Below are positions 45,321 to 58,916 of a stretch of DNA of 64,000 bases, in pieces (within the stretch, counting starts at the first letter, position 1; each line of letters starts with the position of its first letter). Origin of the DNA: Escherichia coli. GTDB taxonomy: Bacteria; Pseudomonadota; Gammaproteobacteria; Enterobacterales; Enterobacteriaceae. Made by a program: the position numbers and the translations under genes. The DNA lies in NCBI RefSeq assembly GCF_013122565.1, contig NZ_CP053258.1; one strand, 5' to 3'. The notes under the pieces were generated by a model. It saw only the letters and a program-made list of their open reading frames with translations, was not told the origin of the DNA and made no database searches.

Positions 45321-46748
45321 TCAGACAATCTCTTCCGCGTACTGCCAAAGCGCTTTTAACAGCGCCACTTTTTCTTTATCGTCGGCATACTGCTGCGCCA
45401 GCATCTGAATCTCTTCTGCATAGCCTTGTAAAAACTCGGGTGTGAATACCTGGCGGCGGTGCTCCAGCCAACGTTGCTGCTCGGCATAATCCAGCGTCCC
45501 TGGGAAGTTGCGCGCCCGATAATTGAACAACAGCTTTTCAATTCGTTTATCAACAAAAGTGATATCCAGTGCCGGTAAATTACGCGGCTCGGTTTCCAGC
45601 ACAATTTTCATTGCTGCACGATCGGCGTCACTGAAAAAGCCGTTATAAAGCTGTGCATCCACGTTATCTGAAGGCGTAAACGGTTCGGCTTCCGCGAATA
45701 TCGCCACCACTTTTTCGCGCACTTGCGGATTTTCACGCAGAATTTTCAGGTTATCGAGGCAATGCTGACGATTAATTCCCAGTCGGTCGGCATCTTCCGG
45801 GCGTAGCGTATTCGCCTGGGCCAGCACCGGACATTTATTGATATGCACCAGCTTAACCGGAACGGCGGCGTTATCGCTAAGATCGGTTTTTGCGGTATAT
45901 AAACGCTCGCGCAATGTGTCGCTATCCAGTTCCAGTAATGGCGAAATGTCTCCTGCCAAATCCACCATAATTACGGCATTGCGATTTTCAGGATGCCACG
46001 CCAGCGGTGCCACCCAGCTGGTATTGCCGCGCCATGCCCCAAACATTCCGGAAACGTGCACCAGGGGTTTCATCTGCGGAACATCAATCAACGCCATCAG
46101 TTTGTGTTTATTACGATGGGTAAAGAGATAATCAAACAGACGTGGCTGACACGTTTTTACCAGTTTCGCCATCGCAATAGTAGCGTACACGTCAGCCATC
46201 GCATCGTGGGCATTGCTATGTTCAATACCATTCGCTTTGGTTAAATGCTCAAGGCGAAAGCTCGGTAGACCGTCATCATTTTCAGGCCAATTTATTCCTT
46301 CCGGGCGCAGGGCATAACAGGCACGCATAACATCCAGTAAATCCCAGCGCGAGTTATCATGCTGCCAGCTCCAGGCGTAAGGATCGTAGAAATTACGATA
46401 AAAAATGTTGCGTGTGACTTCGTCGTCGAAACGCACATTGTTGTAGCCCAGAATACAGGTCTTCGGTACGGTAAAAAGCGAGTGAATACGAGCGGCAAAT
46501 GCGGCTTCGTTTTCTCCTTTCGCCCGAGCTTCCTGCGGGGTAATACCGGTAATTAATACTGCTCCAGGCTGGGGTAAATAGTCATCCGCGGGCTTGCAGT
46601 AAAAGACTTCGGGTTCGCCGATGATATTGAATTCGCTATCGGTGCGAATGGCTGCGAACTGTGCAGGGCGATCTAACGCGGGGTGCGTGCCAAAGGTTTC
46701 GTAATCGTGAAACAAAAAGGTAGATTGTTGCTTACCGTCATTCATCAT
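45321..46748 (-). CDS. sbcB: Exodeoxyribonuclease I
   Basis: Track ORF to 46796; internal start gives 475 aa starting MMNDGKQQSTFLFHDYETFGTHPALDRPAQFAAIRTD (DEDDh exonuclease motif). Confidence 0.95.
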   Translation of the reverse strand: MMNDGKQQSTFLFHDYETFGTHPALDRPAQFAAIRTDSEFNIIGEPEVFYCKPADDYLPQPGAVLITGITPQEARAKGENEAAFAARIHSLFTVPKTCILGYNNVRFDDEVTRNIFYRNFYDPYAWSWQHDNSRWDLLDVMRACYALRPEGINWPENDDGLPSFRLEHLTKANGIEHSNAHDAMADVYATIAMAKLVKTCQPRLFDYLFTHRNKHKLMALIDVPQMKPLVHVSGMFGAWRGNTSWVAPLAWHPENRNAVIMVDLAGDISPLLELDSDTLRERLYTAKTDLSDNAAVPVKLVHINKCPVLAQANTLRPEDADRLGINRQHCLDNLKILRENPQVREKVVAIFAEAEPFTPSDNVDAQLYNGFFSDADRAAMKIVLETEPRNLPALDITFVDKRIEKLLFNYRARNFPGTLDYAEQQRWLEHRRQVFTPEFLQGYAEEIQMLAQQYADDKEKVALLKALWQYAEEIV

Positions 46749-46956
46749 TAGGTTAAATCCGTTATTTCTGCTGTCTGCCAGAGTATCAAATATCATCGTG
46801 CTAATCAGCTTTAGCGCGACAATTTGACAGCGAGTGGCAACAGATCATGTCAGATGAAAATGAGCGGGTAGTCACATTTTCTTGCACTTTATTCCAGCCA
46901 GTTCATAAGTATTTCCGTAAAAAGAACAGCTATTTGAAACTCCTGAGGGTTTGCTG

Positions 46957-48123
46957 TTGAAACGCCGTCTTATTATTGCTGCTTCTTTGTTCGTTTTTAA
47001 CTTATCGTCTGGTTTTGCGGCGGAAAACGTTCCTTTTTCACCTCAGCCTCCAGAGATTCATGCCGGGTCCTGGGTATTGATGGATTACACCACCGGTCAG
47101 ATCCTCACCGCGGGTAATGAGCATCAACAGCGCAATCCCGCCAGCCTGACAAAGCTGATGACAGGCTATGTCGTGGATCGCGCTATCGATAGTCATCGCA
47201 TTACGCCAGACGATATTGTCACCGTGGGGCGCGATGCGTGGGCGAAAGATAATCCGGTGTTTGTCGGTTCTTCACTGATGTTTTTGAAAGAGGGCGATCG
47301 CGTATCGGTACGTGATTTAAGCCGTGGTTTAATTGTGGATTCCGGAAATGACGCTTGTGTTGCTCTGGCTGACTATATTGCCGGTGGGCAACGGCAGTTT
47401 GTTGAAATGATGAACAACTATGCCGAGAAGCTGCATCTCAAGGATACGCATTTTGAAACAGTGCATGGTCTGGATGCACCAGGCCAGCATAGCTCGGCTT
47501 ATGATTTAGCTGTGCTTTCTCGCGCTATCATCCACGGCGAGCCCGAGTTTTATCATATGTACAGTGAGAAAAGCCTCACCTGGAACGGTATCACCCAGCA
47601 AAACCGTAACGGGTTATTGTGGGATAAAACCATGAATGTTGACGGCCTGAAAACGGGTCATACTTCTGGTGCCGGGTTTAATCTCATTGCTTCGGCTGTC
47701 GATGGGCAGCGTCGTCTCATTGCAGTGGTAATGGGTGCTGACAGCGCAAAAGGTCGTGAGGAAGAGGCAAGAAAATTACTGCGTTGGGGGCAACAAAACT
47801 TTACTACGGTGCAAATTTTGCACCGTGGGAAAAAGGTCGGTACGGAACGCATCTGGTATGGCGATAAAGAAAATATCGCCCTGGGAACAGAACAAGAGTT
47901 CTGGATGGTACTACCGAAAGCCGAAATTCCACATATCAAAGCCAAATATACCCTTGATGGTAAAGAGCTCACCGCGCCAATTAGCGCCCATCAGCGGGTA
48001 GGGGAAATTGAACTTTATGACCGTGATAAACAGGTGGCGCACTGGCCGCTGGTTACCCTGGAATCTGTCGGGGAAGGCAGCATGTTTTCTCGCCTGAGTG
48101 ATTATTTCCACCATAAGGCCTGA
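46957..48123 (+). CDS. dacD: D-alanyl-D-alanine carboxypeptidase DacD (PBP6b)
   Basis: 388 aa from an apparent TTG start (MKRRLIIAASLFVFNLSSGFAAEN); active-site SxxK (ASLTK) and SGN motifs; gaggg Shine-Dalgarno upstream. Confidence 0.9.
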   Translation: MKRRLIIAASLFVFNLSSGFAAENVPFSPQPPEIHAGSWVLMDYTTGQILTAGNEHQQRNPASLTKLMTGYVVDRAIDSHRITPDDIVTVGRDAWAKDNPVFVGSSLMFLKEGDRVSVRDLSRGLIVDSGNDACVALADYIAGGQRQFVEMMNNYAEKLHLKDTHFETVHGLDAPGQHSSAYDLAVLSRAIIHGEPEFYHMYSEKSLTWNGITQQNRNGLLWDKTMNVDGLKTGHTSGAGFNLIASAVDGQRRLIAVVMGADSAKGREEEARKLLRWGQQNFTTVQILHRGKKVGTERIWYGDKENIALGTEQEFWMVLPKAEIPHIKAKYTLDGKELTAPISAHQRVGEIELYDRDKQVAHWPLVTLESVGEGSMFSRLSDYFHHKA

Positions 48124-58640: not shown

Positions 58641-58916
58641 TTATGCCGATTTAGGTAAAATAGCCTCAACATCACTGTGTGGACGCGGGATGACATGGCA
58701 GGATTTCACTTCGCCAACGGCGCTTGCCGCAGCGCTACCCGCATCAACGGCGGCCTTTACTGCGCCAACATCACCGCGGACCATAACCGTAATCAGACCC
58801 GAACCAATCTTTTCATAGCCAACCAGCTGCACGTTGGCGGATTTAACCATGGCATCTGCAGCTTCAATTGCGCCAACTAACCCTTTTGTTTCAACCAGTC
58901 CTAGTGCGTTGTTCAT
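58641..58916 (-). CDS. pduJ: PduJ, major hexameric BMC shell protein
   Basis: 91 aa starting [41 protein letters not shown] (canonical BMC-H). Confidence 0.92.

Follow-up and report, generated by a model that had tools for sequence, protein, structure and literature searches.

The question raised by this locus is at which codon the translation of dacD, the gene for PBP6b, begins in Escherichia coli. In the window, by which we mean the whole stretch of 64,000 nucleotides of E. coli DNA analysed here, a mechanical ORF finder gives the frame as 46951..48123 with a TTG start and 390 amino acids, and a second TTG in the same frame, at 46957, gives 388 amino acids. An earlier note on this DNA had preferred the second codon, remarking correctly that the listed ORF begins two codons earlier at another TTG, and had proposed a comparison with curated dacD annotations and N-terminal proteomics as checks. 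We consider it very probable that dacD is translated from UUG at 46957. This TTG start is already known as the established annotation of E. coli, and the new part of the present study is the comparative support for it.

Identity of the gene and its product

The dacD CDS (46957..48123, + strand) consists of 388 codons and a TAA stop, and its product is PBP6b, a DD-carboxypeptidase. The protein scored 848.4 bits with the NCBIfam equivalog model for DacD (NF008489; cut-off 610), and the paralog models on the same protein, DacA (457) and DacC-type (426), were both under their own cut-offs. The crystallised PBP6b of E. coli (PDB 5FSR) is near-identical to the protein of the window (E=1e-243). The motifs of class C low-molecular-weight PBPs are all found in the translation: SxxK as SLTK (S63-K66 in the 388-amino-acid numbering, codons 47143-47154, with the catalytic Ser63 codon at 47143-47145), SxN as SGN in VDSGNDA and KTG in GLKTGHT. 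The window has the gene order sbcB-dacD-sbmC, the same as in K-12, and a 501-nt probe around the dacD start found a match with at least 95% identity in 5415 of 5426 complete E. coli genomes. In comparison with dacD of K-12 MG1655, the window is identical from the TTCCGTAAAAAG block (-45) to +54, with the same TTG, the same length of 388 amino acids and conserved synteny. Visible differences from K-12 DacD include I25V and D312A, and none of them is relevant to the start codon. Over positions 46800-47300, the identity of the window is 100% with strain ET201 and 98.6% with K-12.

The first 21 codons (46957..47019, +) encode a predicted signal peptide, MKRRLIIAASLFVFNLSSGFA, with the inferred cleavage after GFA. 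By inspection, it has Sec-type features, namely the n-region MKRR, the hydrophobic core LIIAASLFVFNL and the c-region SSGFA, which is followed by AE and provides small residues at -3/-1. Peters et al. (2016; PMC4916385) assigned the first 21 residues to the signal peptide and residues 22-388 to the mature protein, with S63 as the catalytic residue (S63A). The start of their constructs at residue 22 is a design choice and not a measured mature N-terminus. The first residues of the construct in PDB 5FSR are AENIPF. As a separate observation within the gene, an intragenic sigma-54 binding site pointing toward sbmC was reported in dacD (Bonocora et al., 2015; PMC4591121), and this site, IS25 (ACGGTGCAAATTTTGCA), is present at 47806-47822 (+) with zero mismatches in the window.

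The start region and its Shine-Dalgarno element

The dacD frame is closed upstream by an in-frame TAA at 46918-46920 (+), and the ten codons after it contain no ATG, GTG or TTG until TTG 46951-46953. From 46951 the frame reads TTG CTG TTG(46957) AAA CGC CGT CTT ATT ATT, and K-R-R-L-I-I follow after 46957. The upstream TTG (46951..46953, +) is the first codon of the mechanical 390-amino-acid ORF. The CTG between both TTGs (46954..46956, +) has an acceptable SD spacing but would be a very weak start, and this codon varies among orthologs. The TTG (UUG) at 46957..46959 (+) is favoured as the initiation codon by annotation, SD spacing and ortholog conservation, and the second codon after it, AAA (Lys; 46960..46962, +), is fixed at the nucleotide level. 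Further along the frame, canonical starts are found at TTG 46987, in the hydrophobic core of the signal peptide, and, within the mature domain, at TTG 47077 and ATG 47080. ATG 47080 is the first ATG of the frame, which agrees with the earlier statement that the interval from the upstream stop to the signal peptide is free of ATG.

The Shine-Dalgarno core GAGG at 46945..46948 (+) is the sole anti-SD-complementary element upstream of dacD. It belongs to the gaggg that the earlier note had seen ahead of the TTG and that is indeed present at 46945-46949. Pairing of GAGG with the 3' end of 16S rRNA gave -6.1 kcal/mol, and other sites in 46925-46940 did not go beyond about -1. In the ortholog set described below, A, G and G of this core are invariant (81/81) and the first G is kept in 80 of 81. 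GAGG stands 8 nt ahead of TTG 46957, 5 nt ahead of CTG 46954 and 2 nt ahead of TTG 46951. These distances were calibrated with genes of the ET201 region corresponding to the window, which were measured on the sequence of the ET201 record itself, because collinearity between the window and ET201 begins only at about 41.7 kb. In this region, 37 annotated genes have a single clear SD core; its spacing is 4-10 nt in 35 of them, and a spacing of 2 nt occurred in none. Among the 65 annotated genes of the ET201 region, the start codons are 61 ATG, 2 GTG, 1 TTG (dacD) and 1 ATA.

Existing annotation and literature

The curated entry for MG1655 b2010 (NP_416514.4, version 4) has a 1167-nt CDS of 388 amino acids beginning at the base that corresponds to 46957 of the window, so that the proposed comparison with curated annotations supports the earlier choice. 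The RefSeq/PGAP annotations of ET201, HMS174, MS10858, O157:H7 F8952 and 51008369SK1 also have a 1167-nt CDS with this first base. All six RefSeq records of E. coli that were sampled agree on this start, and the sequence from -45 to +15 around the start is identical or nearly so across those compared. In an exact-sequence lookup, the 388-amino-acid protein of K-12 was found on at least 1000 contigs and the 390-amino-acid E. coli form on 7. The agreement within RefSeq is not independent evidence, since PGAP propagates one model, and for this reason we sought independent comparative support. The numbering in the PBP6b literature (21-residue signal peptide, mature residues 22-388, S63) fits the 388-amino-acid form only.

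With regard to experiments, neither the searchable literature nor the initiation-site datasets that were searched gave a direct experimental determination of where dacD initiates, and the TRAINSPOTTER supplements do not include dacD. At neutral pH, about 29 molecules of PBP6b are produced per generation (PMC4916385), and standard initiation datasets probably contain no dacD signal for this reason. Proteomics of the mature N-terminus cannot discriminate between the two TTGs, because the signal peptide is removed and both starts lead to the same mature N-terminus, AENVPF....

Codon conservation across orthologs

We compared 80 orthologous loci from different Enterobacteriaceae species together with the window (81 sequences in total), anchored on the aligned start. 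They range from Escherichia to Klebsiella, Enterobacter, Kluyvera and Kosakonia, with 79-99% protein identity. The codon homologous to 46957 is TTG without exception (81/81), neither ATG nor GTG occurring there, and codon 2 is AAA in all 81. On the other hand, the two codons before it vary. The codon homologous to 46954 (-1) is CTG in 39, CCG in 34, TCA in 3, CCC in 2, TCG in 2 and CTA in 1 of the 81 sequences. At the codon homologous to 46951 (-2), we found ATG in 38, ATA in 19, TTG in 8, TTA in 6, ATT in 4, ACA in 2, and ACG, GTT, TTT and CTG in 1 each. Hence the -2 codon is ATG or TTG in 46 of 81 and not a canonical start in 35 of 81. The -2 ATG (in our numbering, loci L008, L010, L012-L021 and others; locus positions 1495-1497) lies 2 nt after the SD. 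The changes at both positions are non-synonymous, M/L/I/T/V/F at -2 and then L/P/S at -1.

An ordinary leucine codon would be expected to drift as the other leucine codons of the gene do, and this TTG does not. Among the 24 columns of invariant Leu in the 81 proteins, a single codon is used at column 1 only, and the other 23 columns use 4-6 codons each. When all 188 invariant columns of degenerate amino acids are taken, only three have a single codon, namely TTG (column 1), AAA (column 2) and one CAG. The same holds within the 38 species with ATG at -2, where TTG is the sole single-codon column among 26 columns of invariant Leu. Free codons at -2 and -1 followed by a frozen TTG-AAA are the pattern expected of a start codon and its second codon, and would be hard to explain with a start two codons earlier, although some other constraint of the initiation region could in principle freeze TTG-AAA at the nucleotide level.

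Moreover, in 23 of the 81 loci no canonical start precedes the conserved TTG on the way from the upstream in-frame stop. No alternative start codon is available in these 23 orthologs, whereas in E. coli one is available, the TTG two codons upstream. Most loci of Enterobacter, Lelliottia and Leclercia have TGA 18 nt upstream of the TTG, and the next downstream start lies at +30 to +123 nt, that is, within or beyond the signal peptide, so that no other start there gives a complete signal peptide. At the protein level, MKRR and the hydrophobic core region are kept in all 81 orthologs. The start of dacD at TTG 46957 with 388 amino acids, as the earlier note had it, is thus in agreement with MG1655 and the sampled RefSeq records of E. 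coli, with the PBP6b numbering and with the conservation in 81 sequences. The note had argued that this TTG is the only start giving the expected N-terminus. The start stands but the argument does not, because it is circular: the expectation itself came from the existing annotation. The independent arguments for TTG 46957 are the SD spacing and the conservation.

Alternative starts

The earlier note regarded a downstream ATG as the finding that would speak against TTG 46957, but the real rival is the codon two codons upstream, which is TTG in E. coli and ATG in 38 of 81 orthologs. If translation started at TTG 46951 alone, it would give a 390-residue precursor, MLLKRRL.... This codon is the first canonical start that follows the in-frame stop and the longest-ORF choice, its homologous codon is ATG in 38 and TTG in 8 of 81, DacD forms of 390 amino acids exist in databases and are dominant in Salmonella RefSeq, and MLLKRR is still a valid n-region of a signal peptide. 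We had tried the features of the signal peptide as a discriminator, and they were uninformative, MKRR... and MLLKRR... both being acceptable n-regions. On the other hand, 46951 lies only 2 nt from the sole SD, outside the range seen in 35 of 37 neighbouring genes. Since its codon is non-canonical in 35 of 81 sequences and most loci of the Enterobacter group have a stop upstream of it, it is not an ancestral or general start. Such a start would also leave unexplained that codons 3-4 of its ORF (TTG, AAA) are nucleotide-invariant and codon 2 is free, and the curated K-12 record, already in version 4, has the 388-amino-acid form. TTG 46951-46953 is most likely not the main initiation codon, and its exclusive use seems very improbable to us.

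Alternatively, both codons may be used, mainly 46957 and to a minor extent 46951, the latter more where it is ATG (Salmonella, Citrobacter, Klebsiella), and the two precursors would yield the same mature PBP6b. Two start-capable codons 6 nt apart behind one SD would allow this, and there would be little selection against leakage because the products are equivalent after cleavage of the signal peptide. The presence of ATG or TTG at -2 in 46 of 81 orthologs is above the expectation for a wholly neutral codon and counts against a reading in which only TTG 46957 is used. However, the 2-nt SD spacing speaks against efficient use of 46951, and the -2 codon, with 10 different codons, has no selective signature, so we hold this dual use to be unlikely. 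A start further downstream, at TTG 46987 or ATG 47080, would make the signal peptide shorter or absent. In its favour, ATG 47080 is the first in-frame ATG and has a weak anti-SD match (-5.2 kcal/mol, interrupted helix) 3 nt before it. However, TTG 46987 belongs to the hydrophobic core and lacks an SD (-1.0 kcal/mol), and a start at 47080 would leave a periplasmic enzyme with no signal peptide at all and would cost it about 20 residues of the mature part, which are ordered in the 5FSR construct. The conservation of the signal peptide in 81 of 81 orthologs effectively refutes the downstream starts, and we regard their probability as negligible.

A model of initiation at TTG 46957

For the preferred start at TTG 46957, we suppose that the 30S subunit would be placed by pairing of the 3' end of 16S rRNA with GAGG at 46945-46948, which would bring the codon 8 nt downstream into the P site. 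The initiator fMet-tRNA would read UUG 46957, so that the first residue would be Met and not Leu, and the A-rich second codon AAA would be part of the initiation region. TTG 46951 would be too near to the SD for efficient use. The 388-residue precursor would then be exported, and signal peptidase I would remove the Sec signal peptide of 21 residues, leaving mature AENVPF....

UUG is one of three strong bacterial start codons, yet in well-annotated genomes it makes up only about 4% of the annotated starts (bioRxiv 10.1101/063800). Similarly to UUG-initiated bacterial genes in general, dacD has its UUG behind an SD at normal spacing. It differs from them in that the weak codon is unusually stable (TTG in 81 of 81). 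The number of PBP6b is reported to be 6-30 copies per cell at pH 7.5, and its transcription is induced 25-40-fold at pH 5 (PMC4916385); acid induction of dacD was also reported in PMC13251458. The combination of a weak start codon and a short (4-nt) SD match would fit the very low basal amount of PBP6b.

One T-to-A change would turn the TTG start of dacD into ATG, and still ATG occurs there in none of the 81 sequences. This fact leads to a bolder idea, that UUG and AAA of dacD are actively kept weak, so that the basal amount of PBP6b would stay at a few molecules per cell. Expression would then be set almost entirely by acid-induced transcription, maybe via the conserved block at 46871-46891 described below, and the upstream ATG of 38 species, which shares the SD, would be an additional start that yields little or no product. 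We regard this whole scheme as rather doubtful, and selection for a weak dacD start codon is speculation.

dacD in Salmonella and other relatives

DacD of Salmonella enterica (390 amino acids in RefSeq, MLLKRRLF...) has the same layout as the window with regard to the SD (GAGGA), TTG-AAA and the signal peptide, but differs in that its -2 codon is ATG, and gene callers start there for this reason. Database forms are not uniform: for an S. diarizonae sequence, the 388-amino-acid form was found on 824 contigs and the 390-amino-acid form on 921, and DacD entries of Citrobacter and Klebsiella are a mixture of 388 and 390 amino acids. The comparison suggests that TTG may be the functional start in Salmonella, too, and the DacD models of 390 amino acids in Salmonella and in some Citrobacter and Klebsiella are probably two codons too long.

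This matter is mainly one of annotation hygiene, since the longest-ORF rule mis-starts dacD by two codons, and the E. coli reference is already correct. Whichever start is used, the mature enzyme is the same, since the signal peptide is cleaved off, and the biological consequence is limited to the translation efficiency of a low-abundance, acid-induced carboxypeptidase.

Upstream region and other loci

Among the orthologs, non-coding conservation between sbcB and dacD is highest in the block GTCACATTTTCTTGCACTTTA at 46871-46891 (+). This 21-bp sequence has exact matches in Escherichia, Salmonella and many Citrobacter loci, and resembles two tandem OmpR-type 10-bp half-sites (GTTACATTTT). We regard it as a possible operator for the induction of dacD by acid; the papers that mention both OmpR and dacD document no link between them. 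Another conserved block, TTCCGTAAAAAG at 46912-46924 (+), includes the in-frame TAA and is situated 33-45 nt ahead of the start codon. Possibly it represents the -10/discriminator region of a promoter that depends on an activator. Transcription-start data for dacD were not found, and a scan of 46700-47100 for sigma-70 promoters and terminators gave none on the + strand. Known RNA families were also absent from 46700-47100 at E<=1 (Rfam).

Folds of single sequences suggested a hairpin that would sequester the start codon and that seemed by eye to covary, between AACAGC (46925-30) and GCUGUU (46953-58), but it did not survive closer inspection. The E. coli fold was no better than shuffled sequences (z = +0.66), 76.0% of the cells were paired in 69 distinct orthologs compared with 77.4% in column shuffles, the covariation score was below the shuffles, and RNAalifold gave no consensus pairs.

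Several other observations were made on the window. Its positions 1-41700, the colanic-acid / O-antigen / his region, are not collinear with ET201 (offsets of 2157, 2335 and 82 nt), so that the strain of the window differs from ET201 and has another O-antigen region. The neighbouring gene sbcB (-) is given by the ORF finder with a start at ATG 46796 (491 amino acids), compared with the RefSeq/K-12 start at 46748 (1428 nt, 475 amino acids), and here too the longest-ORF rule over-extends the gene. At 58642-58644 (-), a pduK-like gene for a BMC-domain protein in the PGAP annotation of ET201 starts at ATA, which overlaps the stop of pduJ (ATAA), and the sequence of the window is identical there. 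This ATA start is another non-canonical start call that is worth checking.
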